64,000 bases of DNA from Candidatus Spongiisociaceae bacterium (GTDB lineage: Bacteria > Actinomycetota > Acidimicrobiia > Spongiisociales > Spongiisociaceae), in NCBI GenBank assembly GCA_965262915.1, contig OZ253564.1:4416001-4480000 (forward strand), read 5' to 3'. Under the pieces are notes generated by a model that did no database searches, was not told the origin of the DNA, and was given only the letters and a program-made list of their open reading frames with translations. Made by a program: the position numbers and the translations under genes. Numbering within the stretch: position 1 is the stretch's first letter; the number at the start of each line of letters is the position of its first letter. Of this stretch, positions 2,026-50,949 are shown piece by piece.

Positions 2026-3024
2026 TCAGAGGCTCAGCCCGCCGGATGGTCTAACCAGCTGTGGGGTGCTGTCGCGCGACCGGATCCGCACCCGCCGCTG
2101 GTAGAGCTCTTGGAGAGCGTCCCACGCGGTGCGGAGACGGGGATGAGCATCGAACAGTCTGTCGAGGTGCGCCTGGTGGGCTTCGGTTAGGTGATCGGCC
2201 CGGCGCAGGAGGGTGAAGCGGGCTCGGAACAGGTCCGGCTCGAACGTTGGGGGACGCCGGTGGGGGTCGCGGCGCTGCAGCTCTCTGCGTACCAGAGTGA
2301 GGCCTTGGGTGAACCAGCGTACGACGTGGAACCGGTCGAGCACATGGCGAGCAGCTGGCAGATACTGTGCGATTGCGGCCTGATATGAGCGGGACCCGTC
2401 GCTCACGACTATCTCCACCTGCCGGCACCACTGGGGTCCTTGATCCCTAAAGAACCTGGACAGCGACCCTTTCGTGCGACCTGGGATCATCGCCAGCACC
2501 TTGCCGCTGTCGCCACAGGCGACCACAGTCACATACCGGTGACGGCGCCGTATCGACGTTTCGTCGACCAACAGCACACGACACGGCCGGGCCCGGCGAC
2601 GCTGCGCCACCCGCTCCGAGTGGGCTCTCACCAACCCCATTATCCGATGCCACCCAACCCCGTGATGGCGGGACGCTGCCCGAATCGACATCACCGTTGC
2701 ATCCGCCACCAGGCGACGGGCGAACCGGCGGGTTAGGCCAGCTTCGAACTGGTCGTGGTCCTCGAGGTGCCGCTCGCCACAGTTCCCACATTCGAACCGG
2801 CGTCGCCGCCACACCAGCGTGGTGCGGCGGCCGCTCACCTCCAAGTCACGAACCCTCTTGGATCGCCGATCCCACACCCGTCGGCATTTGAACCCGCAAT
2901 GGCGGCACCGCGACCACTCCCGAGCCGATTCCACTTCGACCTCGAGACGCTCAACAGTGTCGACCCCCACCCTCATCACGCGAACACCCGACAAGTGCAG
3001 ACGAACGGACATAACATCAGACAT
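2026..3024 (-). pseudogene. ISL3-family transposase, 3'-truncated
   Basis: CxxC zinc finger, RRRRFEC, VDETS and DRFHVV motifs; C-terminal catalytic region missing. Confidence 0.85.
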
Positions 3025-3123
3025 CGAGGCCTCTCCCTGGATCGGCGATGTTGGCTATTCACCGATTCCAGCGGGGCCTCACCCCCATTCCAAGGATTTC
3101 ACCCCACCCAACCCACGATGCTC

Positions 3124-4357
3124 CTATGTTTTGCAAATCGGTTGTTGGGTGAGCCAGTGTTGGTATCGGGTAGCGAGGTGGTGGTTGTGGTGGAGGCCTC
3201 GTTCGAGTTGTGATAGGACGGTGGGCTGCGTGTCGAGGTGGTGGGCGGCGCGGGTGAGGGTGATTCGGGCTTGGGTTCGGCGGTGGCGTAGGTCGGTTCC
3301 GTGGGGTGTTGGGGGCGGGTCGGTGAGGAGGTGGTATATCTCGCGGGCGATGTGGCGTTTCAGGCAGCGGATTATTTCGGTGTGGGTTTTTCCTTCCGCT
3401 TCGCGTCTGGTGACATATTCTTTGGTGGCAGCGTCGGTGCGCATTCGGTTGGTAGCGCATCGGCCATAGCGCGTTGTTTGCTTGGCGGTTGCCGCCTCGG
3501 TTGAGACGGTGCCGCACTATCGGTCCCGATGATGCGGCTACGGGGCTGAGGGCGCAGAGGGCCGCGAAGGCTGCTTCTGAGTTCATACGTCGTGGGTTGT
3601 CACCAGCAGCGACCAGGAGAGCAGCGGCGGTGTCGGGTCCTACTCCGTAGGCGGCCAGCAACGCAGGGTTGGCCCGTGCGCAGAGACCGCGGATCTGTTT
3701 GTCGACCTGTGTGATCTCGGTGTCTAGATTCTGGTATCGGCGGGCTAGAAGCCGCAGTGCCCGCTTGGCGTATGCCGCAGTGGTCTGCGCTGTGGCTGGA
3801 CGGAAGCGGGCACAGACCTTGACCTGTGTCCGGGTCGGGAGATCCCGGAGTTGGTGTTTGACCTGCTCAGGAGCGGTTACTACCAGAGCGTGCAGCTGGT
3901 TGGCGGCCTGGGTGCGGGCTTTGACCGCGGAGCGGCGAACTACCCGCAGCATCCTGGTGGCTTCTACCGGTCCGTCGCCCGTCTTGGGTAGGGCGGTCGC
4001 TTCACCGTTGAGAGCAGCCCGGGCTGCTGCCTCAGCGTCGGTGGTGTCATCCTTGCCCCGCCGCCGGCGAAGCTGGCGGTTGGGACGGTTCACCTCCACC
4101 ACACCGATACCCGCCTCGGTGAGATGACGTGTGAGCCCAGCGCCGTAGCTGCCCGTTCCCCCCACCCCGACCCGGCAGATCCGACCCCACGACTCCATCG
4201 GGGCGACCAGTTGGGCATAACCGGAGGTATCAGCCCCGAACTGGGCGGATCCCAACAGGCGACCCGCGCCATCCACCACCGCCCCAACGTGGAAATCCCG
4301 ATGTGTGTCCACCCCGCCAACCACACCTACCCCATCGGCCCTAACTTGCTCCGCCAT
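3124..4357 (-). pseudogene. IS110 recombinase with C-terminal XRE HTH, frameshifted
   Basis: GVDTH and RLNRGGNRQAN motifs; VGVGGTG replaces the VGVEGTG of sister copies; frameshift near 3460. Confidence 0.85.
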
Positions 4358-4451
4358 GTGCTCGCCTTTCGTCGGCTGCCTAGAATCCAACCCCCGGAGC
4401 CGGGCAGAGCGGCGGACAGAACACTCACGGTGCAAAAGTCGAAGGCTCCTA

Positions 4452-4690
4452 ATGGGGGTCCACCACTTCTGCCGGTGTTTCTGGGAGGGTGTGGTGGTTG
4501 AGCTGGCTGGCCGGTGAGTACTCCAGGCTCCTGGAACGTTGATTCCTGCTGATAGATCGTGCCCCGGCCGGTGAGTGAGGGCCGCTTGTAGCGCTCATGG
4601 GGTGGCGTGCCACAGAGCACTGATCCATTAGGTCGCCGCCAGGCGTTCTCCACAGCTCAGCAGAGAGTGGACCCGCGCAAGGAAGGGGCG
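4452..4690 (+). ncRNA. Putative bridge RNA
   Basis: AGGCTCCT (4525-4532) and TGATAG (4550-4555) match the target flanks; TGGGGTG (4598-4604) and CCATTAG (4625-4631) match the element's own ends. Confidence 0.7.
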
Positions 4691-4694
4691 AAGG

Positions 4695-5915
4695 ATGATC
4701 TTTGTGGGTAACGACTGGGCTGAGGGACATCACGATGTGTATCTCATGGACGAGGAGGGAGCCCGCCTGGGGTTCTCCCGTCTACCGGAGGGCCTGGCGG
4801 GTGTGGCCCGCTTGCACGAGATGGTCGCCAAACACGCATCGGATGCGGCCGAGGTGGTGGTAGGGATCGAGACCGACCGTGGTCTGTGGGTCGGTGCTCT
4901 GGTCGGGGCGGGTTATCAGGTGTATGCGATCAACCCGATGGCAGTTTCCCGTTACCGGGACCGTCACCGCCAGGGTGGAGCCAAATCAGACCGAGGAGAC
5001 GCCAAGGTGTTAGCCGATCTGGTACGCACCGACCGTCACAACCACCGTCCGGTAGCCGGGGACAGCCCCGAATCGGAAGGTATCAAGATCATGGCCCGTG
5101 CCCATCAGAACCTGATCTGGGCGCGGACCCGCCACACCAACCAGATGCGCAACGCGCTGCGCGAGTACTACCCTGCAGCCCTGGAAACGTTCGATGACCT
5201 GGCCCATCGCGACGCCCTAGCCATACTCGGTCGGGCACCCACCCCCACCCGGGGCGCCCGCCTGACACTTCCCCAGATCAGAGCAGCGGTACAGAGAGGC
5301 GGACGGAAACGCAACCTCGACAAGGTTGCCCGCCGCATACAGAAAGGCCTCAGAGGTGCCCACCTCACCGCACCCGGGCCGGTCGCGGACGCCTTCGGGA
5401 CGATCGTTGCTTCGCTGGTCAAGATCATCGCGGAAACCAACCGCCAGATCGCCGACCTCGAAGAAACCCTCGAGACCCATTTTGAAGAACACCCGGACGC
5501 CGTCATCTACCACTCCCAGCCAGGACTCGGTACCGTGCTCGGCGCCCGGGCGCTCGGTGAGTTCGGGGATGACCCCGACCGCTACACCAGCGCCAAGTCT
5601 CGCAGAAACTACGCCGGCACGTCGCCCATCACCATCGCATCAGGCCGCAAACACGCCGTCGTTGCCCGCCAGGTCCGCAACCGGCGACTCCCCAACGCTT
5701 TGGACCAATGGGCATTCTGTTCCCTCAACAACAGTCCAGGAGCGCGAGCCTTCTACGACCAACGAAAAGCAGCCGGCGACCTCCACCACCAAGCACTACG
5801 AGCCCTCGCCAACCGGCTCGTCGGCATCCTCCACGGCTGCCTCAAACACCGAACCCCCTACGACGAACACACCGCCTGGGCACACCGAACCATGCTCGAC
5901 CGAGCCGCAGCTTGA
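4695..5915 (+). CDS. IS110-family recombinase/transposase
   Basis: GNDWAEGHHD, GIETDRG, AKSDRGDA and YAGTSPITIASG motifs; intact ORF. Confidence 0.92.
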   Translation: MIFVGNDWAEGHHDVYLMDEEGARLGFSRLPEGLAGVARLHEMVAKHASDAAEVVVGIETDRGLWVGALVGAGYQVYAINPMAVSRYRDRHRQGGAKSDRGDAKVLADLVRTDRHNHRPVAGDSPESEGIKIMARAHQNLIWARTRHTNQMRNALREYYPAALETFDDLAHRDALAILGRAPTPTRGARLTLPQIRAAVQRGGRKRNLDKVARRIQKGLRGAHLTAPGPVADAFGTIVASLVKIIAETNRQIADLEETLETHFEEHPDAVIYHSQPGLGTVLGARALGEFGDDPDRYTSAKSRRNYAGTSPITIASGRKHAVVARQVRNRRLPNALDQWAFCSLNNSPGARAFYDQRKAAGDLHHQALRALANRLVGILHGCLKHRTPYDEHTAWAHRTMLDRAAA

Positions 5916-5937
5916 CATTTACGCTCCTGGGGTGTCT

Positions 5938-6060
5938 ATCAAGTCACCCCGCTCCCCGGTTCAGGGTTCCCACCCGGGGCCAGGTCGACAGATCGTGGGA
6001 AAGGCACCAAAGGCCAGTTTTCGCGTGAGTCAGACCCGGCCCCAACCGGAAACCCTATAA
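5938..6060 (-). ncRNA. 5' half (target-binding loop) of the split bridge RNA of the outer IS110; 3' half at ~4360-4448
   Basis: Same scaffold as 40812-41030; variable segment ATCGTGGG (5992-5999) equals the element's right flank. Confidence 0.65.
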
Positions 6061-6370
6061 GTATGAGTGTTTCCGCGCAGGGCCAACTACTCATCTAGGC
6101 TAGGCTGTCATGTGGCACAACAATCCGAAGGTCCACTACAAGTGTGAGGGCCTCGAGTCGGGTCCTTGTGAAAAGCGGCATCATGACCTTATGACAGCGG
6201 TTCACCATACGGACAAGTACAACCGGCGGGTTTCGATGGACAATCCGAGGGCGGTGGGGGATCGGGTAGTGATCGCCCATGGCGACCTTGATCCGTTGCC
6301 CTATCCAGTGCGGGCCGCACAACCCTGCGACTGCCCCACCGATCATTGAGGCCGGGAGACGGGGAACGGT

Positions 6371-8336
<1,966 letters not shown>

Positions 8337-20688: not shown

Positions 20689-20907
20689 GCTCCCTTCTGC
20701 CCAGGTGAAGATCCGCCGGGTCGGCGTCGTGCGGACGCTGATATCGAGGATGACAAGTGACCAGTCTTGGCGGGTGGCGCGGTCGGCTAGGGCGAGGATG
20801 TCGGAGGAGTTACGGCCGAAGACGGGAGACGACCGACACGTCAGCCCGGCCTTCGTTGAGGCCCTGGAGGATGCGCCTTATTGGGCTCATCGATGCTCCT
20901 ATGGTTG

Positions 20908-22137
20908 TCAAATCGATGATGGGGCGGTTTGGTGGGTGTGCAGCCAGTTCTGGTATCGGGTGGCGAGGTGGTGGTTGTGGTCTCGGCCGTGTTCGAGTGC
21001 TGAGATGCGATTGGGGTGGGTTCCGACGGCTTGGGCGGTCTGGGTGAGGGTGATGCCGCGTTGTTGGCGTCGGGTGCGTAGGCGGGCGCAGTTCGGGGTT
21101 GGGTGCGGGTTGGTGAGGAGCCGGTAGATTTCTCGGGCGATGTGCCGCTTGAGGCAGCGGATGATCTCCTTTTTCTTCTTGCCCTCGGCCTTGCGTCGTG
21201 CCACGTAGGCTTTGGTGGCGGCGTCGGTGCGCATCCGGGTGGTAGCGATCCGCCATAGCGCGTTGTTGGCTTGGCGGTTGCCGCCCCGGTTGAGACGATG
21301 CCGAAGGGTTCGTCCTGATGACGCCTGGACGGGGCTGGCGCCGCACAGCGCCGCGAAAGACCGTTCCGATTTCATTCGCTTGGGGTTGTCGCCGGCGGCG
21401 ACCAACAACGCGGCGGCTGTGTCAGGACCGACACCTTCTGTGGCCAGCAGGGCCGGGTTGGCCTGGGCGCAGAGACGCCGGATCTCGGCTTCGAGTTGGG
21501 CGATCTCTACGTCGAGGGCCTGATACCGGCGGGCCAAATGCTGTAGGGCACGCTTCGCATACGCGGTGGTGGTGTGGTCTGTGCCGGGTCGGAACCGGGC
21601 ACAGGTTTTGACCCGTGCTTTGAGATTCATGCCCTTTAGCTGGTGTTTTAGCGGCTCGGGAGCTGTTACGACCAGCGCATGTATCTGGTTAGCGGCCTGG
21701 GTGCGGGCCTTGACCGCGGAGCGGCGCACCACCCACAGCATCCGTATGCACTCGACCGGGCCCACACCGGACTTGGGAACCGCGGTTGCTTCGCCCGAGG
21801 CAGCTGCCCGAGCTGCCGCCTCGGCGTCGACGCTGTCGGTCTTGCCGCCCTTCTGGCGGCGTAGTTGGCGGTTGGGGCGGTTGACCTCCACCACCTCGAT
21901 GTTCATCTCGGTCAGGTAACGGGCCAGGCCGGCGCCGTAACTACCCGTTCCTTCCACCCCAACCCGAACCAACTGTCCCCGCGACTCGAACCAGGTGACC
22001 ATTCGCCGATAACCGGATTCCTCCACCGCGAAAGACTCCGATCCCAGTACCCGCCCGACGCCATCCACCACCGCTGCTACGTGGACGTCCCGATGGGTGT
22101 CAACCCCACCGTAGATAATCTGGTCTGCTTCTCCCAT
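20908..22137 (-). CDS. IS110 recombinase with C-terminal XRE HTH
   Basis: GVDTH, VEGTGSYG, KTDSVDA and ASSG motifs; protein identical to 41043..42272. Confidence 0.93.
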   Translation of the reverse strand: MGEADQIIYGGVDTHRDVHVAAVVDGVGRVLGSESFAVEESGYRRMVTWFESRGQLVRVGVEGTGSYGAGLARYLTEMNIEVVEVNRPNRQLRRQKGGKTDSVDAEAAARAAASGEATAVPKSGVGPVECIRMLWVVRRSAVKARTQAANQIHALVVTAPEPLKHQLKGMNLKARVKTCARFRPGTDHTTTAYAKRALQHLARRYQALDVEIAQLEAEIRRLCAQANPALLATEGVGPDTAAALLVAAGDNPKRMKSERSFAALCGASPVQASSGRTLRHRLNRGGNRQANNALWRIATTRMRTDAATKAYVARRKAEGKKKKEIIRCLKRHIAREIYRLLTNPHPTPNCARLRTRRQQRGITLTQTAQAVGTHPNRISALEHGRDHNHHLATRYQNWLHTHQTAPSSI

Positions 22138-22149
22138 GATGCTCTTCTC

Positions 22150-22365
22150 CTCTAGGGGATAGAATCATTTCCGATCCCCGGACCCGTGTGCGGTTGGACA
22201 GGCCACTCACGGTGGAGAAGTTGAAGGCTCCTATTAGGTCACATCCGCCCCGGGTCAGGGGGTTACGCCCCAGGCCGGGAACGGGCCGACAGATCGATGA
22301 AAAGGCACAAGGCCAGATTTCAGTTGGGTCAGACCCGCCCTAGCCCAGGAACCCTCTAATTATGA
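22150..22365 (-). ncRNA. Putative bridge RNA
   Basis: Guides AACTGAAAT and TCATCGAT match the target; ATAGGAGC and TGAGTGG match the element's own ends. Confidence 0.7.
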
Positions 22366-22372
22366 GTGGATT

Positions 22373-23708
22373 TCAGTGGGGAGTGACCGATGGGAGTAGG
22401 TCCCAGTTGGGTTTCCCCGCGTAGAGAAGGGCGCGGATTCGGTAGTTCGCGAAGTTGGGTAACCCGAACGCTGCTCGTTTGATCCGTTTGATGAGGTTGT
22501 TGAGGGCTTCGGTGGGTCCGTTGGTTACCTTCGAGATGTGCCAGTTGGTGATCTGGGGGGTCCAGCGGGCGATGGTACGACCCAGCTTGTTGATCTCGGG
22601 TGGGCAGGATTCGTGTTGGAGGTCGTCTGCGAGCTGGAGGGTGTATCGGAGAGCAAGGACCGGACTCTCGATCCCGTAGATGCCTCGTACCGTCTCTTTC
22701 GCGTGCCAGGCTGTGCGCACTTCCCCGTGGGGGTCACCAGCGTCGAGGAGACCACGCAGCCGTATTTGACCGCGGTCGCTGATCCTCTCATGCGCAGCGG
22801 TTAGGAGCCGCCGTATCCGATACAGCGGGTCATCCTTGCGGCCTCTGTGTCCCAGGGTTTCGTTTTGGACTCTTCGTCGTACCTCGTCGAGACGCTGGTT
22901 GGCGAGGCGGATGACGTGGAACGGGTCCGCTACCTGCAGCGCGTGCGGTAACACCCTGTCATACGCCTTCCGATACGAACCGGACATGTCCAACACCGCC
23001 CAGCGGATAGCCTCACACCATTCGGTGGGTTGTGACCGGAACCAGGCTGCGGCGCTTTCTGCTGTTCTACCAGGGACTATGTCGAACCGGCTGGTGGCCG
23101 CCAACGTCGACGACAGAGGTGCACCAGACTTTGGTACGCCAACGGCCCCGACGCCAGAACAACGTCTCGTCCACTCCCACAGCTTCGACGGTCCCGACCC
23201 GATCGGTGTCTGCTTCCAGCAGCGCTTCGCCCCAGCGGCCAACCTCTTTGTTCACCGTATGCCAATCACAACCAAGTTCTGCGGCGACCTCGTCGACCGA
23301 ACGGCCCCGCCCACCCACCTGGATGGTCACCCACCGGGCCGCTCGGGATGTCAACAACGCCCGTTGGGGACCAATCTTGGGGTCTTGTTCGATGAACGAT
23401 CTGAGCGCACAGTCGGTGTTCGGACATGTCCAGCGCCGTTTCCGCCACCGCAGCCGCACAGGCCGGCCGAACGCCGGTAAATCCACCAACACCACACTCC
23501 GATAGCCCTTCGACCACACCGACCCGCCACAGGCCACACACAACGGCCGGGGCTTGCGGGACCGGATCACCACCTCCAACGGTGCCTCCTCGCCCGGGTC
23601 GTTGATCCCTACCAGATCAACCTCACCTAGGCCTACCAACTTCTCGCACATGCGCGCAGGGATCAGCTTCCACAGGGGTCCTCCTGCCTCGGATGTCATT
23701 ACCAACAC
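22373..23708 (-). pseudogene. ISL3 transposase, frameshifted
   Basis: Near-identical to 39510..40808; split into two ORFs near 23085. Confidence 0.9.
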
Positions 23709-39509: not shown

Positions 39510-40808
39510 GTGGAAGCTGATCCTACGCGCATGTGCGAGAAGTTGGTAGGCCTAGGTGAGGTTGATCTGGTAGGGATCAACGACCCGGGCGAGGAGGCAC
39601 CGTTGGAGGTGGTGATCCGGTCCCGCAAGCCCCGGCCGTTGTGTGAGTCCTGTGGCGGGTCGGTGTGGTCGAAGGGCTATCGGACGGTTGTGTTGGTGGA
39701 TTTACCGGCGTTCGGCCGGCCTGTGCGGCTGCGGTGGCGGAAACGGCGCTGGACATGTCCGAACCCCGACTGTGCGCTCAGATCGTTCATCGAACAAGAC
39801 CCCAAGATTGGTCCCCAACGGGCGTTGTTGACATCCCGAGCGGCCCGGTGGGTGACCATCCAGGTGGGTGGGCGGGGCCGTTCGGTCGACGAGGTCGCCG
39901 CAGAACTTGGTTGTGATTGGCATACGGTGAACAAAGAGGTTGGCCGCTGGGGCGAAGCGCTGCTGGAAGCAGACACCGATCGGGTCGGGACCGTCGAAGC
40001 TGTGGGAGTGGACGAGACGTTGTTCTGGCGTCGGGGCCGTTGGCGTACCAAAGTCTGGTGCACCTCTGTCGTCGACGTTGGCGGCCACCAGCTGATCGAC
40101 ATAGTCCCTGGTAGAACAGCAGAAAGCGCCGCAGCCTGGTTCCGGTCACAACCCACCGAATGGTGTGAGGCTATCCGCTGGGCGGTGTTGGACATGTCCG
40201 GTTCGTATCGGAAGGCGTATGACAGGGTGCTGCCGCACGCGCTGCAGGTAGCGGACCCGTTCCACGTCATCCGCCTCGCCAACCAGCGTCTCGACGAGGT
40301 ACGACGAAGAGTCCAAAACGAAACCCTCGGGCATCGAGGCCGCAAGGATGACCCGCTGTATCGGATACGGCGGCTCCTAACCGCTGCGCATGAGAGGATC
40401 AGCGACCGGGGTCAAATACGGCTGCGTGGTCTCCTCGATGCTGGTGACCCCTACGGGGAAGTGCGCACAGCCTGGCACGCGAAAGAGACGGTACGAGGCA
40501 TCTACGGGATCGAGAGTCCGGTCCTTGCTCTCCGATACACCCTCCAGCTCGCAGACGACCTCCAACACGAATCCTGCCCACCCGAGATCAACAAGCTGGG
40601 TCGTACCATCGCCCGCTGGACCCCCCAGATCACCAACTGGCACATCTCGAAGGTAACCAACGGACCCACCGAAGCCCTCAACAACCTCATCAAACGGATC
40701 AAACGAGCAGCGTTCGGGTTCCGCAACTTCGCGAACTACCGAATCCGCGCCCTTCTCTACGCGGGGAAACCCAACTGGGACCTACTCCCATCGGTCACTC
40801 CCCACTGA
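39510..40808 (+). CDS. ISL3-family transposase
   Basis: GVDET, LDMS, DPFHV and TNGPTEALNNLIKRIKR..FGFRN motifs; intact. Confidence 0.93.
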   Translation: MEADPTRMCEKLVGLGEVDLVGINDPGEEAPLEVVIRSRKPRPLCESCGGSVWSKGYRTVVLVDLPAFGRPVRLRWRKRRWTCPNPDCALRSFIEQDPKIGPQRALLTSRAARWVTIQVGGRGRSVDEVAAELGCDWHTVNKEVGRWGEALLEADTDRVGTVEAVGVDETLFWRRGRWRTKVWCTSVVDVGGHQLIDIVPGRTAESAAAWFRSQPTEWCEAIRWAVLDMSGSYRKAYDRVLPHALQVADPFHVIRLANQRLDEVRRRVQNETLGHRGRKDDPLYRIRRLLTAAHERISDRGQIRLRGLLDAGDPYGEVRTAWHAKETVRGIYGIESPVLALRYTLQLADDLQHESCPPEINKLGRTIARWTPQITNWHISKVTNGPTEALNNLIKRIKRAAFGFRNFANYRIRALLYAGKPNWDLLPSVTPH

Positions 40809-40814
40809 AATCCA

Positions 40815-41030
40815 CTCATACTTAGAAGGTTCCTGGGCTAGGGCGGGTCTGACCCAACTGAAATCTGGCCTTGTGCCTTTTCATCGATCTGTCGGCCCGT
40901 TCCCGGCCTAGGGCGTAACCCCCTGACCCGGGGCGGATGTGACCTAATAGGAGCCTTCAACTTCTCCACCGTGAGTGGCCTGTCCAACCGCACACGGGTC
41001 CGGGATCATAAGTGAGTCTATCCCCTAGAG
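40815..41030 (+). ncRNA. Putative bridge RNA
   Basis: AACTGAAATC (40856-40865), TCATCGAT (40881-40888), ATAGGAGC (40947-40954), TGAGTGG (40972-40978). Confidence 0.72.
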
Positions 41031-41042
41031 GAGAAGAGCATC

Positions 41043-42272
41043 ATGGGAGAAGCAGACCAGATTATCTACGGTGGGGTTGACACCCATCGGGACGTCCACG
41101 TAGCAGCGGTGGTGGATGGCGTCGGGCGGGTACTGGGATCGGAGTCTTTCGCGGTGGAGGAATCCGGTTATCGGCGAATGGTCACCTGGTTCGAGTCGCG
41201 GGGACAGTTGGTTCGGGTTGGGGTGGAAGGAACGGGTAGTTACGGCGCCGGCCTGGCCCGTTACCTGACCGAGATGAACATCGAGGTGGTGGAGGTCAAC
41301 CGCCCCAACCGCCAACTACGCCGCCAGAAGGGCGGCAAGACCGACAGCGTCGACGCCGAGGCGGCAGCTCGGGCAGCTGCCTCGGGCGAAGCAACCGCGG
41401 TTCCCAAGTCCGGTGTGGGCCCGGTCGAGTGCATACGGATGCTGTGGGTGGTGCGCCGCTCCGCGGTCAAGGCCCGCACCCAGGCCGCTAACCAGATACA
41501 TGCGCTGGTCGTAACAGCTCCCGAGCCGCTAAAACACCAGCTAAAGGGCATGAATCTCAAAGCACGGGTCAAAACCTGTGCCCGGTTCCGACCCGGCACA
41601 GACCACACCACCACCGCGTATGCGAAGCGTGCCCTACAGCATTTGGCCCGCCGGTATCAGGCCCTCGACGTAGAGATCGCCCAACTCGAAGCCGAGATCC
41701 GGCGTCTCTGCGCCCAGGCCAACCCGGCCCTGCTGGCCACAGAAGGTGTCGGTCCTGACACAGCCGCCGCGTTGTTGGTCGCCGCCGGCGACAACCCCAA
41801 GCGAATGAAATCGGAACGGTCTTTCGCGGCGCTGTGCGGCGCCAGCCCCGTCCAGGCGTCATCAGGACGAACCCTTCGGCATCGTCTCAACCGGGGCGGC
41901 AACCGCCAAGCCAACAACGCGCTATGGCGGATCGCTACCACCCGGATGCGCACCGACGCCGCCACCAAAGCCTACGTGGCACGACGCAAGGCCGAGGGCA
42001 AGAAGAAAAAGGAGATCATCCGCTGCCTCAAGCGGCACATCGCCCGAGAAATCTACCGGCTCCTCACCAACCCGCACCCAACCCCGAACTGCGCCCGCCT
42101 ACGCACCCGACGCCAACAACGCGGCATCACCCTCACCCAGACCGCCCAAGCCGTCGGAACCCACCCCAATCGCATCTCAGCACTCGAACACGGCCGAGAC
42201 CACAACCACCACCTCGCCACCCGATACCAGAACTGGCTGCACACCCACCAAACCGCCCCATCATCGATTTGA
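41043..42272 (+). CDS. IS110 recombinase with C-terminal XRE HTH
   Basis: Same motifs and sequence as 20908..22137. Confidence 0.93.
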   Translation: MGEADQIIYGGVDTHRDVHVAAVVDGVGRVLGSESFAVEESGYRRMVTWFESRGQLVRVGVEGTGSYGAGLARYLTEMNIEVVEVNRPNRQLRRQKGGKTDSVDAEAAARAAASGEATAVPKSGVGPVECIRMLWVVRRSAVKARTQAANQIHALVVTAPEPLKHQLKGMNLKARVKTCARFRPGTDHTTTAYAKRALQHLARRYQALDVEIAQLEAEIRRLCAQANPALLATEGVGPDTAAALLVAAGDNPKRMKSERSFAALCGASPVQASSGRTLRHRLNRGGNRQANNALWRIATTRMRTDAATKAYVARRKAEGKKKKEIIRCLKRHIAREIYRLLTNPHPTPNCARLRTRRQQRGITLTQTAQAVGTHPNRISALEHGRDHNHHLATRYQNWLHTHQTAPSSI

Positions 42273-42739
42273 CAACCATAGGAGCATCGATGAGCCCTGA
42301 ATCTGCGTCCTCGTGGATCCCTCCGGGCGGTTCGCTGAGTAGGCCAACATACACAGCCCGCGCCAAGGCGCCACGCCACATGGGGAGACCTAGGCGAGGT
42401 GTTTTGGTACAGTGGGTGTCGTTGTGTTGTAGACAAGAAACTATGATACGGGATGGATACTCCGCTCGGGTCAGGGTTGCGAGCCTCTGCCTAAAGGACT
42501 ACTCTCCCGAAGATATAGGGCCACGGTGAGCCCGGCAGCCAGCCGAGGTACTCCCCCCAAACCCGGGTGTAGAAATCCGTCTGGCCCATCTGTCTTCTAA
42601 CCATCTTGGTTTCTATTTTTGGACCGGGAGACGTGGCCATGGCCGCCCTCCCGGTTTCTATTGTCCGGAGGGCGGTACCCCATCACGGACCGAGAGGGTG
42701 CCCGCGTGGTTGTTCGTGATCCCGGTAGGAGCCTCTCAG

Positions 42740-46580: not shown

Positions 46581-48054
46581 ACGGGGAGGTGGGTCGTGTC
46601 AGAGGATGGGGTTGGTGTTTTCGGGCTCTTCGGAAATGAGGGGGGAGTAGGGGGTCGGCTAGGTGGTGCCGTAATCCACCAGAAGTGATGGGGGGTCCTC
46701 CATAATCGGATGGTTGGTAACAGACATCCGAGGCAGGAGGACCCCTGTGGAAGCTGATCCTACGCGCATGTGCGAGAAGTTGGTAGGCCTGGGCGACGTT
46801 GATCTGGTAGGGATCAACGACTCGGGCGAGGGTGCACCGCTTGGGGTGGTGATCGGGTCCCGCAAGCCCCGCCCGTTGTGTGAGTCCTGTGGCGGCCCGG
46901 TGTGGTCCAAGGGTCACAGAACGGTTGTGTTGGTGGATTTACCGGCGTTCGGCCGTCCGGTTCGGCTGCGGTGGAGGAAACGCCGCTGGACGTGCCCGAA
47001 CCCCGACTGTGAGATCAGATCGTTCATCGAACAAGACCCCAAGATTGGTCCCCAACGGGCGTTGTTGACATCGAGAGCGGCTCGGTGGGTGACCGTCCAG
47101 GTGGGTGGGCGGGGCCGCCCGGTCGACGAGGTCGCCTCGGAGTTGGGTTGTGATTGGCATACGGTGAACAACGAGGTCGTCCGCTGGGGCGAAGCACTCC
47201 TGGGGGCCGACACCGATCGGATAGGCGAGGTCGGAGCTGTGGGCATCGACAAGAAGCGTTGTTCTGGCGGAAAGGCCGGTGGCGCACCAAGGTTTGGTGC
47301 ACTTCTGTCGTCGATGTGGGAGGCCGCCAGTTGATCGACATAGTCGGTGGTAGAACGGCAGAAAGCGCCGCAGCCTGGTTCCGATCCCAGCCCCCCGAGT
47401 GGCTCGACGGGATCCGCTGGGCGGTGCTGGACATGTCAGGGCCTTATCGGAAGGCGTACGACCGGGTGCTACCGCACGCGCTGCAGGTAGCGGACCCCTT
47501 CCACGTCATCCGCCTCGCCAACCAGCGACTCGACGAAGTACGACGAAGAGTCCAAAACGAAACCCTCGGGCATCGAGGACGCAAGGATGACCCGCTGTAT
47601 CGGATACGGCGGCTCCTCACCGCCGCCCATGAGAGGATCAGCGACCGCGGTCAAACACGGCTGCGTGGTCTCCTCGACGCTGGTGACCCCCATAGCGAAG
47701 TCCGCACCGCCTGGCACGCGAAAGAGACGGTCCGAGGCATCTACGGGGTCGACAGTCCCGCCCTCGCTCTCCGATACACCGTCGGGCTCGCGGACGACCT
47801 CCAGGACGAATCCTGCCCACCCGAGATCAACAAGTTGGGTCGCACCATCGCCCGCTGGACCCCCCAGATCACCAACTGGCACATCTCGAAGGTAACCAAC
47901 AGATGCCACCGAAGCCCTCAACAACCTCATCAAACGCATCAAACGAGCAGCGTTCGGGTTACCCAACTTCGCGAACTACCGAATCCGCGCCCTTCTCTAC
48001 GCGGGGAAACCCAACTGGGACCTACTCCCATCGGTCACTCCCCACTGAAATCCA

Positions 48055-48275
48055 CTCATACTTAGAAGGTTCCTGGGCTGGGACGGGTCTGACCCAACTG
48101 AAATCTGGCTTTGTGCCTTTTCATCGATCTGTCGGCCTGTTCCCAGCTTGGGGGTGTAACCCCCTGACCCGGGGCGGATGTGACCTTATAGGAGCTTTGA
48201 TCTTCCACCACCGTGAGTGGTCTGTCCACCGCCTTCCGGGTCCGAGGATTAGGAAGTGATTCTATCCAGCAGAGG
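48055..48275 (+). ncRNA. Putative bridge RNA
   Basis: Same four guide segments as 40815-41030. Confidence 0.7.
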
Positions 48276-48286
48276 AGGAAGGTGTC

Positions 48287-49603
48287 ATGGGAGAAGATGG
48301 TCGGGTTGTGTTCGGTGGGGTTGATACCCATCGTGATACCCATGTGGCGGCGGTGGTTGATGGCGCCGGTCGGGTCCTGGGAACGGCACCGTTCGGAGCT
48401 GATCCGGTCGGCTATGAGCAACTGGAAGACTGGTTGCGGTTACAGGGTCGCGTTAGCCGGGTAGGAGTGGAGGGCACCGGCAGCTACGGCGCCGGCCTCG
48501 CCCGCTATCTGATGGCGGCGGGCATCGAGGTGGTAGAAGTGAACCGGCCGAACCGGCAGCTACGCCGCCAGCGGGGCGGCAAGACCGACAGTGTCGACGC
48601 CGAGGCGGCAGCTCGGGCAGCGGCCTCGGGGCAAGCTACCGCAGTTCCCAAATCTGGTGACGGACCGGTTGAGTGCATACGGATGCTGTTGGTGGCCCGC
48701 CGCTCGGCTACCAAGGCCCGCACCCAGGCCGCTAACCAGATACATTCTGTGACCGTTACTGCACCTGAGCCGCTAAAACGCCAGCTCAGAGGTCTCAAGC
48801 TCAAGGCTCGGGTTCGGGTCTGTGCCCGCTGGCGTCCCGGCCAAGCACAGACCACTGCGGCGTACGCGAAGATGGCTCTACGCTACCTGGCCCGCCGATA
48901 CCAATCCCTCGACGCAGAGATCCGCGAACTCGACGTCGAGATCCGTCGCCTCTGCGCCGAGGCTAACCCGGCTCCCTTAGCCGCCACCGGTGTGGGCCCT
49001 GACAGCGCTGCTGCGCTGCTAGTCGCTGCCGGCGACAACCCCGGACGGATGAAATCGGAACGGTCCTTCGCTGCGCTATGCGGCGCCAGCCCCGTCCAGG
49101 CATCATCGGGACAGACCATCCGGCATCGTCTCAACCGGGGCGGCAACCGCCAAGCCAACAACGCACTCTGGCGGATCGCTACCACCCGGATACGCCACGA
49201 CGCAGCCACCAACCAATACGTGGCACGGCGCCAGGGGGAAGGAAAGAACCGAAAAGAGATCATCCGCTGCCTCAAGCGGCACATCGCCCGAGAGGTCTAC
49301 CGACTGCTGACCAACCCGCCACCAACCCCGAACTGCGCCCGGCTCCGCCGCCGACGTCAACACGCCAACATCACCGTCACCCAGGCCGCCCAGCTGACCA
49401 ACCCGCCACCAACCCCGAACTGCGCCCGGCTCCGCCGCCGACGTCAACACGCCAACATCACCGTCACCCAGGCCGCCCAACAGCTCGGAACCCACCCCAG
49501 CCGCATCTCAGCACTCGAACACGGCCGAGACCACAACCACCAACTCGCCAGCCGATACCAGACCTGGCTCCTAACCCACCAACCGGCCCCATCACCGACT
49601 TGA
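48287..49603 (+). CDS. IS110 recombinase with HTH tail and an 87-bp in-frame duplication
   Basis: IS110 motifs; LTNPPPTPNCARLRRRRQHANITVTQAAQ occurs twice. Confidence 0.9.
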   Translation: MGEDGRVVFGGVDTHRDTHVAAVVDGAGRVLGTAPFGADPVGYEQLEDWLRLQGRVSRVGVEGTGSYGAGLARYLMAAGIEVVEVNRPNRQLRRQRGGKTDSVDAEAAARAAASGQATAVPKSGDGPVECIRMLLVARRSATKARTQAANQIHSVTVTAPEPLKRQLRGLKLKARVRVCARWRPGQAQTTAAYAKMALRYLARRYQSLDAEIRELDVEIRRLCAEANPAPLAATGVGPDSAAALLVAAGDNPGRMKSERSFAALCGASPVQASSGQTIRHRLNRGGNRQANNALWRIATTRIRHDAATNQYVARRQGEGKNRKEIIRCLKRHIAREVYRLLTNPPPTPNCARLRRRRQHANITVTQAAQLTNPPPTPNCARLRRRRQHANITVTQAAQQLGTHPSRISALEHGRDHNHQLASRYQTWLLTHQPAPSPT

Positions 49604-49627
49604 CAACCATAGGAGCATCGATGAGCC

Positions 49628-50837
49628 TGTTTTCGGTGGGGTTGATACCCATCGGGATGCCCATGTGGGGGCGGTGGTGGATAGCGCTGGTCGCCTGTTG
49701 GGTTCGGAGTCGTTCGCAGCGGAGAGAGCCGGGTATCGCCAGATGGTCGCCTGGTTCGGATCGCAGGGATGCCTGGTTCGGGTCGGGGTGGAAGGGACAG
49801 GCAGCTACGGCGCTGGGCTGGCTCGTTATCTGACCGCAGCCGACATCGATGTGGTGGAGGTGAACCGCCCCAACCGCCAACTACGCCGCCAAAAGGGCGG
49901 GAAGTCTGACAGCGTCGACGCCGAGGGAGCAGCTCGGGCGGCTGCTAGCGGGGAGGCGGCGGCGGTTCCTAAATCCGGTGATGGGCCGGTTGAGTGCCTC
50001 CGGATGCTGTTGGTGGCCCGCCGCTCCGCGACCAAGGCCCGCACCCAGGCCGCTAACCAGATCCATTCTGTGATCGTTGGTGCCCCAGAGCCGGTAAAAC
50101 ACCAGCTCAAGGGTATGAACCTCAGAGCACGGGTCCGGGTCTGTGCCCGCTGGCGTCCCGGTGAAGCACAGACCACAGCCGCGTACGCGAAGAAGGTTCT
50201 ACGCCACCTGGCCCGCCGATACCAAACCCTCGACGCAGAGATCACCGAACTTGAGGGAGACATCCGTCGTCTCTGCGCTAGGGCGAACCCGGCGTTGTTG
50301 GCCGCCAACGGTGTGGGCCCTGACACAGCCTCGGTGCTGCTGGTCGCAGCCGGCGACAACCCCGGGCGAATGAAATCGGAACGGTCCTTCGCGGCGCTGT
50401 GCGGCACCAGTCCTGTTCAGGCATCATCGGGACAGACCATACGGCATCGTCTCAACCGGGGCGGTAACCGCCAAGCCAACAGCGCGCTGTGGCGGATCGC
50501 TACCACCCGGATGCGCACCGACGCTGCCACCAAAGAATATGTGACCAGACGCCAGGGGGAAGGAAAGAACCGAAAAGAGATCATCCGCTGCCTCAAGCGG
50601 CACATCGCCCGAGAGATCTACCGACTACTCACCAACCCGCCCCCAACCCCGAACTGCGCCCGCCTACGCGACCAGCGTCAACATGCCGGTATCACCGTGA
50701 CCCAGGCCGCCCAAGCCCTCGGAACCCACACAGCCCGCATCTCAGAACTCGAACTCGGACGGAACCACAACCACCAGCTAGCGACCCGATACCAGAGGTG
50801 GCTCCGCACCCACGAGGCGGCCCCATCACCGATTTGA
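49628..50837 (+). pseudogene. IS110 recombinase separated from its start by ISL3
   Basis: FGGVDTHRD begins at the TSD. Confidence 0.88.
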
Positions 50838-50949
50838 CAACCGTAGGAGCATCCCCACCCTGTGACAGCAAATACCAGACGTTGAGTGGGGTCCTCTCCA
50901 AGCTGCTGACTGAGAGATCTGGCAGCGAGGAGAGGGAGCCCTGCCGCTG

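Follow-up and report, generated by a model that had tools for sequence, protein, structure and literature searches.

An IS110-group insertion sequence with guides that match the putative donor-guide DNA of a second IS110 element

Organization of the locus

We analysed a window of 64,000 nucleotides of contig OZ253564.1 (assembly GCA_965262915.1), from a Candidatus Spongiisociaceae bacterium, in which one insertion sequence (IS) of the IS110 group interrupts the left end of another. The inner element occupies positions 4449 to 5937 of the window on the plus strand, 1489 bp including the CT cores at 4449-4450 and 5936-5937. Flanks and cores were read directly: GAAGGCTC precedes the left CT and ATCAAGTCAC follows the right one. 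The element starts with CT-AATGGGGG, ends with GGGGTGT-CT and has non-coding ends of 246 nucleotides on the left and 22 on the right, with the shared core at both junctions and no terminal inverted repeats. The left non-coding end (4451-4694, plus strand) has a bridge-RNA-like structure, in which a target loop is followed by a donor loop, and the right end (5912-5937, plus strand) holds the motif TTGACA. When the two ends are joined as a circle, TTGACA comes to lie 17 bases ahead of TCTAAT, and the same arrangement (TTGACA-N17-TCT/AAT) is found in relatives across the family of the inner element. These motifs would form a promoter across the circle junction.

The gene at 4695-5915 (plus strand) encodes an intact recombinase of 406 amino acids, and the frame is retained in all three near-identical copies of the element in this genome. 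Pfam searches identified a DEDD, RuvC-like domain at residues 4-160 (PF01548, E 1.9e-35, profile covered end to end) and a C-terminal Tnp domain (PF02371, E 6.5e-9). Sequence matches in the PDB were to the transposases of ISCro4 (E 1.4e-8) and IS621 (E 5.9e-8), and the S-x-P-G-x-G motif of the inner recombinase aligns with S-I-P-G-I-G of the ISCro4 transposase chain. We take the conserved serine of this motif to be the recombinase nucleophile. In the explanation that we favour, and which as a whole we consider likely with good confidence, the inner element is an intact, autonomous IS110-group insertion sequence with CT cores. The recombinase gene also contains, on the minus strand (5516-5597), a match of 86.9 bits to the Rfam family Ms_AS-4, an Actinobacteria antisense small RNA; the hit could stem from conservation of the coding sequence or from a genuine antisense RNA.

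The element that has been interrupted, hereafter the host, extends from 3118 to 6068 on the minus strand and is split in its left end at TGAT-AG-GAGCCT. Its ends were placed by homology with a nine-copy family represented at 40815-42296. The 3' part (3118-4448, minus strand; four copies aligned) comprises what remains of the donor loop, together with the recombinase gene and a right end that finishes in CATAGGAGCAT. The 5' part of the left end (5938-6068, minus strand) starts with ACTCATACTT and includes a target loop, the guides of which match the flanks of the host. The left non-coding end is therefore cut into two pieces, 4358-4448 and 5938-6068. The host recombinase frame (3059-4357) contains both PF01548 and PF02371, and it overruns the right end of its own element into the flank (3059-3117). 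Despite the split in the left end, host recombinase frames stay open. The host clade is only distantly related to the inner element, and its subfamilies share about 70 to 80% nucleotide identity with one another.

The host in turn interrupts the inverted repeat of a partial ISL3-family element (2026-3117, minus strand), the outer repeat tip of which is found at 6069-6084. The ISL3 transposase (2026-3024, minus strand) matches PF01610, PF14690 and PF13542, and the target guides of the host match both sides of the split ISL3 repeat. The region from 2026 to 6084 thus reads as a three-level nest, with an IS110 inside an IS110 inside an ISL3 element.

Guide segments in the left end of the inner element

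To assign guides we used the geometry given by Durrant et al. (2024, PMC11208160), in which a left guide repeats the sense of the left target or left donor, core included, and a right guide is the reverse complement of the right side together with the core. All four expected segments lie on the plus strand of the left end. The left target guide, AGGCTCCT (4525-4532), reads in the sense of the left flank and core, and matches AGGCTC-CT at 8 of 8 bases. The right target guide, (C)TGATAG (4549-4555, with the TGATAG portion at 4550-4555), is the reverse complement of CT plus ATCA and matches at six of seven. Between them they match all 12 target bases of the insertion site AGGCTC-CT-ATCA. The left donor guide, TGGGGTG (4598-4604), matches the right end of the element, CCTGGGGTGT-CT, and belongs to a block conserved across 39 relatives, while the right donor guide, CCATTAG (4625-4631), is the reverse complement of the left end, CT plus AATGG. 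The first-pass annotation had placed the element at AGGCTC-CT-ATCA with its own guides in the non-coding end, and this was confirmed, since AGGCTCCT, TGATAG, TGGGGTG and CCATTAG were all located.

A consensus fold was calculated with RNAalifold from 39 left ends, those of the inner element and 38 relatives in public genomes (Acidimicrobiia, Rhodococcus, Mycobacterium and others). It consists of two stem-loops, with compensatory changes in 19 of 42 pairs. In the first stem-loop the closing stem and the top hairpin covary, and the strands of the loop are the variable left-guide and right-guide columns. The top hairpin (GGAA..UUCC, 4533-4546, plus strand) covaries between columns 108-111 and 128-131, with GC replaced by AU in 8 to 10 of the 39 sequences. 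The second hairpin is conserved and has the donor guides on its flanks. In all 39 sequences RNAalifold also predicts pairing between CCATTAG and the initial CTAATGG, a restatement of the complementarity of guide and donor.

There is an exception to the donor-guide rule. In copies at genome positions 288788, 721288 and 291611, and at loci L019 and L030, CCATTAG is replaced by CTGCTAG, and the left ends still start with CTAATGG. These copies come from different sub-lineages, and in each the guide does not fit its own left end. Some of them also read GAGGGGGTGG in place of CATGGGGTGG. CTGCTAG may have spread by recombination, or its carriers may be non-autonomous.

The interrupted segment of the host

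We then considered which part of the host is destroyed by the insertion. The host target guides, CGCGAAAAC on the left (6017-6025) and CCCACGA on the right (5993-5999, both in plus-strand coordinates), match the flanks of their own element. Across host subfamilies the left guides (CGCGAAAAC, CTGAAATC, CCTCGTAAC and others) and the right guides (CCCACGA, TCATCGA, GTCATGA and GCGTTGA) match the respective flanks, such that target guides covary with flanks in four subfamilies. In a consensus fold of 16 host left ends, the closing stem of the target loop covaries, and 14 of 26 pairs have compensatory changes. On the 3' side of this loop lies the motif GTGAC-N3-ATAGGAGC-C/T, invariant in the 21 distinct host left ends of this genome. 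The ATAGGAGC block repeats the right end of the host in direct orientation, and the right end of every host subfamily finishes in ATAGGAGCAT, oriented like the block in the left end. This is the orientation required of a left donor guide. About 15 to 25 bases downstream of the block, GTGAGTG (host sense; 4422-4428, minus strand) is the reverse complement of the left-end start, CACTCA, as expected of a right donor guide.

More distant relatives of the host, from other families of the class with 45-57% protein identity, behave similarly. Changes in the left-end start are mirrored in the right donor guide (TCACTG with CAGTGA, TCGCTG with CAGCGA), and in L124 the two match over 11 bases. Among the eight distant relatives with both ends read, the left-end block ATAGGNGC is identical to the right end, compared as 8-mers, in six, including two in which block and right end have changed jointly (both ATAGGTGC in L114, both ATAGGGGC in L118). 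From its position, its orientation and this joint change, the ATAGGAGC block is very likely the left donor guide of the host.

The insertion falls within this segment. One half of it lies at 4441-4448 (minus strand; AG followed by GAGCCTTC in the host sense) and the other at 5938-5943 (minus strand; CTTGAT up to the junction). Of four genomic copies of the outer element that were aligned, two are intact and read GACTTGATAGGAGCCTTCGAC, and two are interrupted at TGAT-AG-GAGCC. The proposal that the inner element splits DNA encoding the donor-guide segment of the outer IS110 is accordingly supported by the position of the segment, its direct repetition in the right end and the joint change of the two.

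An alternative would be that the ATAGGAGC block is a protein-binding or structural direct repeat rather than an RNA guide, and that the inner element simply hits a conserved host motif. Several observations lean this way and count against the donor-guide assignment. RNAalifold recovered the target loop from the 16 host left ends and no convincing donor-loop stem, and a stem search around the donor loop gave a mean best stem of 6.25 versus 5.87 for shuffles, which supports neither side. The left-end motif runs on as GCC-TTC and the right end as GCA-TC, so that the match covers 8 bases and not the whole segment. In L116 and L117, which represent one lineage and two of the eight distant relatives, the block is one base off the right end. 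The assignment is therefore drawn from the position and orientation of the block and from its match to, and joint change with, the right end. Several features speak against a direct repeat. A well-supported target loop precedes the block on its 5' side, which puts the block where IS110-group elements carry the donor loop (PMC11208160); its sense is that of the right end, fitting a left donor guide; the segment 15 to 25 bases downstream is complementary to the left-end start and covaries with it in distant relatives; and block and right end have changed together in two relatives. We therefore regard the direct-repeat explanation as improbable.

Occupied and empty sites within the genome

BLAST identified 11 full-length copies of the inner element in the genome, and the junctions are exact at the CT core in every copy. 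Three are near-identical (at least 98.5% identity), have the same ends and all lie at AAGGCTC-CT-ATCA(A/C)G within IS110 left ends. The third of these has inserted into another host subfamily, with about 72% identity to the first, which points to at least two independent insertion events in this genome. Four sequencing runs were also examined, all as assembled contigs. In one run (X1), a contig with a depth of 28 of 69 joins 4448 to 5936, skipping 1487 bases; we did not count this joint as an excision product, as it has the form of the uninterrupted host copies of this genome and shows two base differences that are typical of them. No circle junction was seen in the assembled contigs, nor was one to be expected there.

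Empty occurrences of the 12-mer AGGCTCCTATCA number only two in the whole genome (5.06 Mb), compared with 0.6 expected at uniform composition, and both are in intact copies of the same host IS. A census of host left ends gave 28 sites, 25 empty and three occupied. Five sites are perfect over 12 bases and three of these are occupied, whereas none of the 23 sites with at least one mismatch is. The unoccupied sites include all 12 of a single-mismatch type, AGGCTC-CT-ATTAGG, in which ATTA replaces ATCA. The hypergeometric chance of three out of three insertions falling within the five perfect sites is 10/3276 (calculated by hand, for events that may not be independent). The region 40815-41030 had been put forward as a matching site in which insertion might be tested; in fact it reads TAATAGGAGCCT, not TGATAGGAGCCT, and is a one-mismatch site.

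The census also bears on the suggestion that the host cannot easily mutate the site. The constraint from the host's own end covers eight of the 12 targeted bases, in line with that suggestion for these bases only. The other four vary with the host subfamily without matching the host right end, reading TGAT, TAAT, TTAT or TCAT on one side and GCC or GCT on the other. Given that none of 23 variant sites is occupied compared with three of five perfect ones, hosts do escape.

Differences among the 11 left ends concentrate in two guide blocks, and in the alignment these track the flanks of each copy. The mean agreement of guides with the flanks of their own copy is 13 of 15 bases, compared with 8.76 for the flanks of another target class (n 62). 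Seven sister copies, 85-87% identical, lie in tandem heptamer repeats of GACACCT/GGCACCT, at genome positions 739262, 372875, 1359845, 2093377, 1852071, 721288 and 1873956. Their right guides (GTGCCAG, GTGTCAG or GTGCTAG) each match their own right flank at seven of seven bases. The eleventh copy, 84% identical, is found at ATGCTC-CT-ATGG in a host right end, that is, in the donor sequence which in the host of this window is CATAGGAGCAT (3118-3128, minus strand) and which is the site hit by a sister sub-lineage. At the end-site copy at 291611-290115 of the genome, the right junction reads CCTGGGG followed by ATGCTCCT, and ATGCTCCT is present on both sides; with a truncated frame of 344 amino acids, this copy is probably defective.

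Relatives in other genomes and metagenomes

Sixty-one related genomes were searched with the left end of the inner element, and 17 matched. Locus L017, from the unpublished genome G043, underlies none of the claims made here. Three further genomes of the genus (G005, G006 and G002) carry relatives in the same host site, in the same position and orientation, so that repeated use of this one site is seen in four genomes. The relatives in G005 and G006 are 88-90% identical and have the guides CAGGCTCCT and GTTGATAG; in G006, for which both ends are available, the right guide matches the target AAGGCTC-CT-ATCAAC over 8 bases. In G002 the host variant AAAGCTC is accompanied by the element guide AAGCTCCT, a compensating change on both sides. 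Together with the guide columns that track flanks in the 11 copies, these occurrences bear out the view of the inner element as a guide-programmed IS110. The G002 element is present as two inverted copies (L019 and L030) 5 kb apart, each with one host and one foreign flank, an apparent signature of inversion between copies.

A sister sub-lineage with the guides GGATGCTCCT and AACATAG sits cleanly in the host right end. In L037 the flanks are ATGCTC before the left CT and ATGTTTTGCAAATCGG after the right CT; L002 is identical to L037 over the compared stretch and was counted once. With the guides ATGCTCCT and AACATAG, this sub-lineage is found in the host right end at L037, L007, a 214-base remnant at genome position 4018494 and the defective copy at 291611; it also appears in L026. 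Yet another target class, GGACCCTC-CT followed by AGCCC or AGAT, lies at the tip of the repeat cccctttgtgcggggttttctcaggaccctc (L033-L036, L041-L043, L062, L021 and L022); this repeat resembles the terminus of a further mobile element. At least four target classes thus occur among elements that are 84 to 90% identical, three of them in one genome. The first-pass annotation had asked whether homologs of the recombinase gene are flanked by IS110 non-coding ends; this holds for the three near-identical copies and for the relatives in G005, G006 and G002, and it does not hold for the sister copies in heptamer repeats or for the relatives in another repeat.

Two rearranged or decayed forms were seen as well. 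L038, the flanks of which are identical in L003, L153 and L155, has the tip of a host right end on its left and a host left end on its right, with the host body between them deleted. L147 and L160 are identical metagenome records in which the host left end retains just the initial 21 bases of the parasite, a decayed footprint. A scan of metagenomes for the junction motif returned 26 stretches, comprising two footprints (mutually identical), two host-body deletions and 22 in other contexts; a guide match was confirmed in none of these 22 stretches, and the motif is thus not confined to IS110 victims.

Guide columns were removed before a tree of 24 elements was calculated. In it, the element of this window groups with that of G006 (Shimodaira-Hasegawa-like approximate likelihood ratio test (SH-aLRT) support of 88), and the guide-site element of G002 groups with end-site elements (SH-aLRT 99). 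Recombination among copies could blur these placements.

It might be argued that the nest arose by chance landing or by homologous recombination in an IS-rich region rather than by programmed insertion. The genome is indeed rich in IS110 elements, with 49 BLAST segments for the host query alone, and the rearranged cases L019/L030 and L038 would also suit such an origin. Against it stand the exact CT-core junctions of every copy, the match of guides to 12 of 12 targeted bases, the occupation of perfect but not of imperfect sites, and the use of the same site by relatives in other genomes, one of which has a compensating change in its guide. On this evidence we consider a chance origin highly improbable.

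Further results, several of which weigh against the favoured explanation, need to be set beside it. In an exact-suffix test on 54 distinct relatives (from 56 elements with both ends), the right guide gave a clear signal (4.2 versus 1.85), the left guide gave a weak one (2.9 versus 1.5), and a left match of at least four bases plus a right match of at least three was found in only 14 of the 54. This test assumed that the left guide reads CT at the core, and in many relatives it does not. The single-sequence fold of the left end was no better than shuffles (z 0.19), a measure that is uninformative in this G+C-rich DNA, and an Rfam scan of 2500-7000 returned no match to a bridge-RNA family and only the Ms_AS-4 match. 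In the RNA run (X18), three contigs at a depth of 2 to 3 cover 5153-5661 in the recombinase gene only and none covers the left end; these contigs could derive from DNA. Finally, the two interrupted copies of one host subfamily differ from each other at 17 positions and from the intact pair at 20 to 29, and share 16 derived columns, so they may descend from a single insertion that was copied as a composite. For this reason the count of three occupied among five perfect sites may stand for no more than two independent events. In the tree, the element inserted in the second interrupted host clusters with the one found in the other host subfamily (SH-aLRT 97), and for these two hosts a composite move and separate insertions are both possible.

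Neighbouring IS110 copies

The nine-copy IS110 family by which the host ends were placed is about 99% identical among its members (in this window at 40800-42296 and 20883-22381), and all nine copies lie inside an ISL3 right inverted repeat. They are flanked by CTCCCCACTGAAATCC on one side and GATGAGCC on the other, and each half of the repeat is matched by one of their two target guides, CTGAAATC and TCATCGA. Two adjoining IS110 copies of the host clade are found at 48040-50853 (BLAST segments 48040-49392 and 49634-50853) and may represent another nest.

Discussion

The arrangement described here suggests the following sequence of events. The inner element would move as a circle, the junction of which would supply both promoter and donor. 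The RNA made from the left end would then use its donor loop to pair with the junction, and its target loop to pair with the two strands of AGGCTC-CT-ATCA in the left end of the host. Strand exchange at CT, in a recombination like that of IS621, would integrate the inner element antisense to the host recombinase gene. This would leave the target loop of the host on one side, with half of the donor guide, the right donor guide and the gene 1.5 kb away on the other. A host copy interrupted in this way would be unable to make an intact bridge RNA and would probably be disabled in cis, although intact copies could supply such an RNA in trans. Since a left donor guide is identical in sequence to the donor that it reads, two nearly identical sites are available in the host, and two or three guide changes would suffice to shift the parasite from the guide site to the end site.

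With copies in heptamer repeats and relatives at the tip of another repeat, the inner lineage is not an obligate hyperparasite. The same mechanism could operate if the host IS110 were merely an abundant, conserved and harmless landing pad, in the way that REP sequences are for other IS110 members, with selection acting neither on damage to the host nor on the inability of the host to change. The seven sister copies in heptamer tandem repeats and the elements at the other repeat tip (L033-L036, L041-L043 and L062) fit this possibility, in which the lineage uses any repeat that suits its guides. Single-mismatch host variants are common (23 sites in our census) and unoccupied, which argues that the host is not trapped, and the host elements themselves target ISL3 inverted repeats, so that landing of one IS in another is common in these genomes. 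On the other hand, relatives in at least five genomes use two functional sites of one host clade, the guide segment and the matching end; the placement of a guide-site element among end-site elements suggests repeated re-targeting within the host and not a random choice among repeats; and the decayed footprints and the host-body deletion point to a long association. We give the landing pad a little under an even chance, and consider it about as likely as a selected anti-IS strategy.

A stronger proposal can be made only tentatively. The lineage might be specialised on a second IS110 clade, aiming at the donor end of its victim and at the guide that reads it, the only two sequences kept identical; we think this possible rather than probable. 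An arms race might then be conducted through guides, with victims escaping solely via the unconstrained bases beside the 8-base core, a notion that we hold with similar reserve. It is equally speculative that the parasite also deletes or inverts the DNA of its victims, as in L038 and L019/L030.

A full-text literature search, which did not cover the supplementary target-motif lists of PMC11208160, yielded no description of an RNA-guided element programmed against the guide-coding DNA of another. The locus would represent a natural case of this kind. It also offers a natural reprogramming series for a compact bridge recombinase, in which single-mismatch sites have been left empty, and a general, testable idea, namely that sequences fixed by guide-donor pairing provide stable targets for other elements. 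Moreover, it explains three-level IS nests that would otherwise be annotated as broken transposases.

Other members of the IS110/IS1111 superfamily, IS4321 and IS5075, reportedly hit transposons of the Tn21 family in their inverted repeats, site-specifically and in one orientation, presumably disabling that end. The inner element resembles them in inserting repeatedly and orientation-specifically at one position of a functional sequence in another element. However, the victim of IS4321 and IS5075 is the protein-binding repeat of a DDE transposon, whereas that of the inner element belongs to the same RNA-guided family, with a site constrained by guide-donor pairing. The host IS110s described here, which hit ISL3 inverted repeats, are the ones that resemble IS4321, and the inner element goes one level further.

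The inner element shares with IS621 and other IS110-group bridge-RNA elements (Durrant et al., 2024, PMC11208160) the DEDD and Tnp domains, the CT core, a long left end encoding a two-loop RNA and the senses of the guides, the left ones reading like the left target and left donor and the right ones as the reverse complement of core and right side. A likely promoter across the circle junction would be a further common feature, deduced in the inner element from its motifs. The recombinases are only distantly related (PDB match with E about 1e-8, C-terminal domain). IS621 targets repetitive extragenic palindromic (REP) sequences, while the inner element targets DNA encoding what we take to be the donor guide of another IS110, and its sister lineage the donor end itself. 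Differences in guide bases among close relatives are also known from ISEc11 and ISXne4, which differ mainly in these bases and lie in correspondingly different targets, a natural re-direction of the seekRNA or bridge RNA (Siddiquee et al., 2024, PMC11187229). In comparison with that pair, the present family has at least four target classes, two of which are the halves of one host's guide-donor pair. In its mechanism the inner element is thus an ordinary member of the IS110 group; what is new is that its victim is an RNA-guided element, and that the site is the guide-coding DNA of that victim or its matching end.

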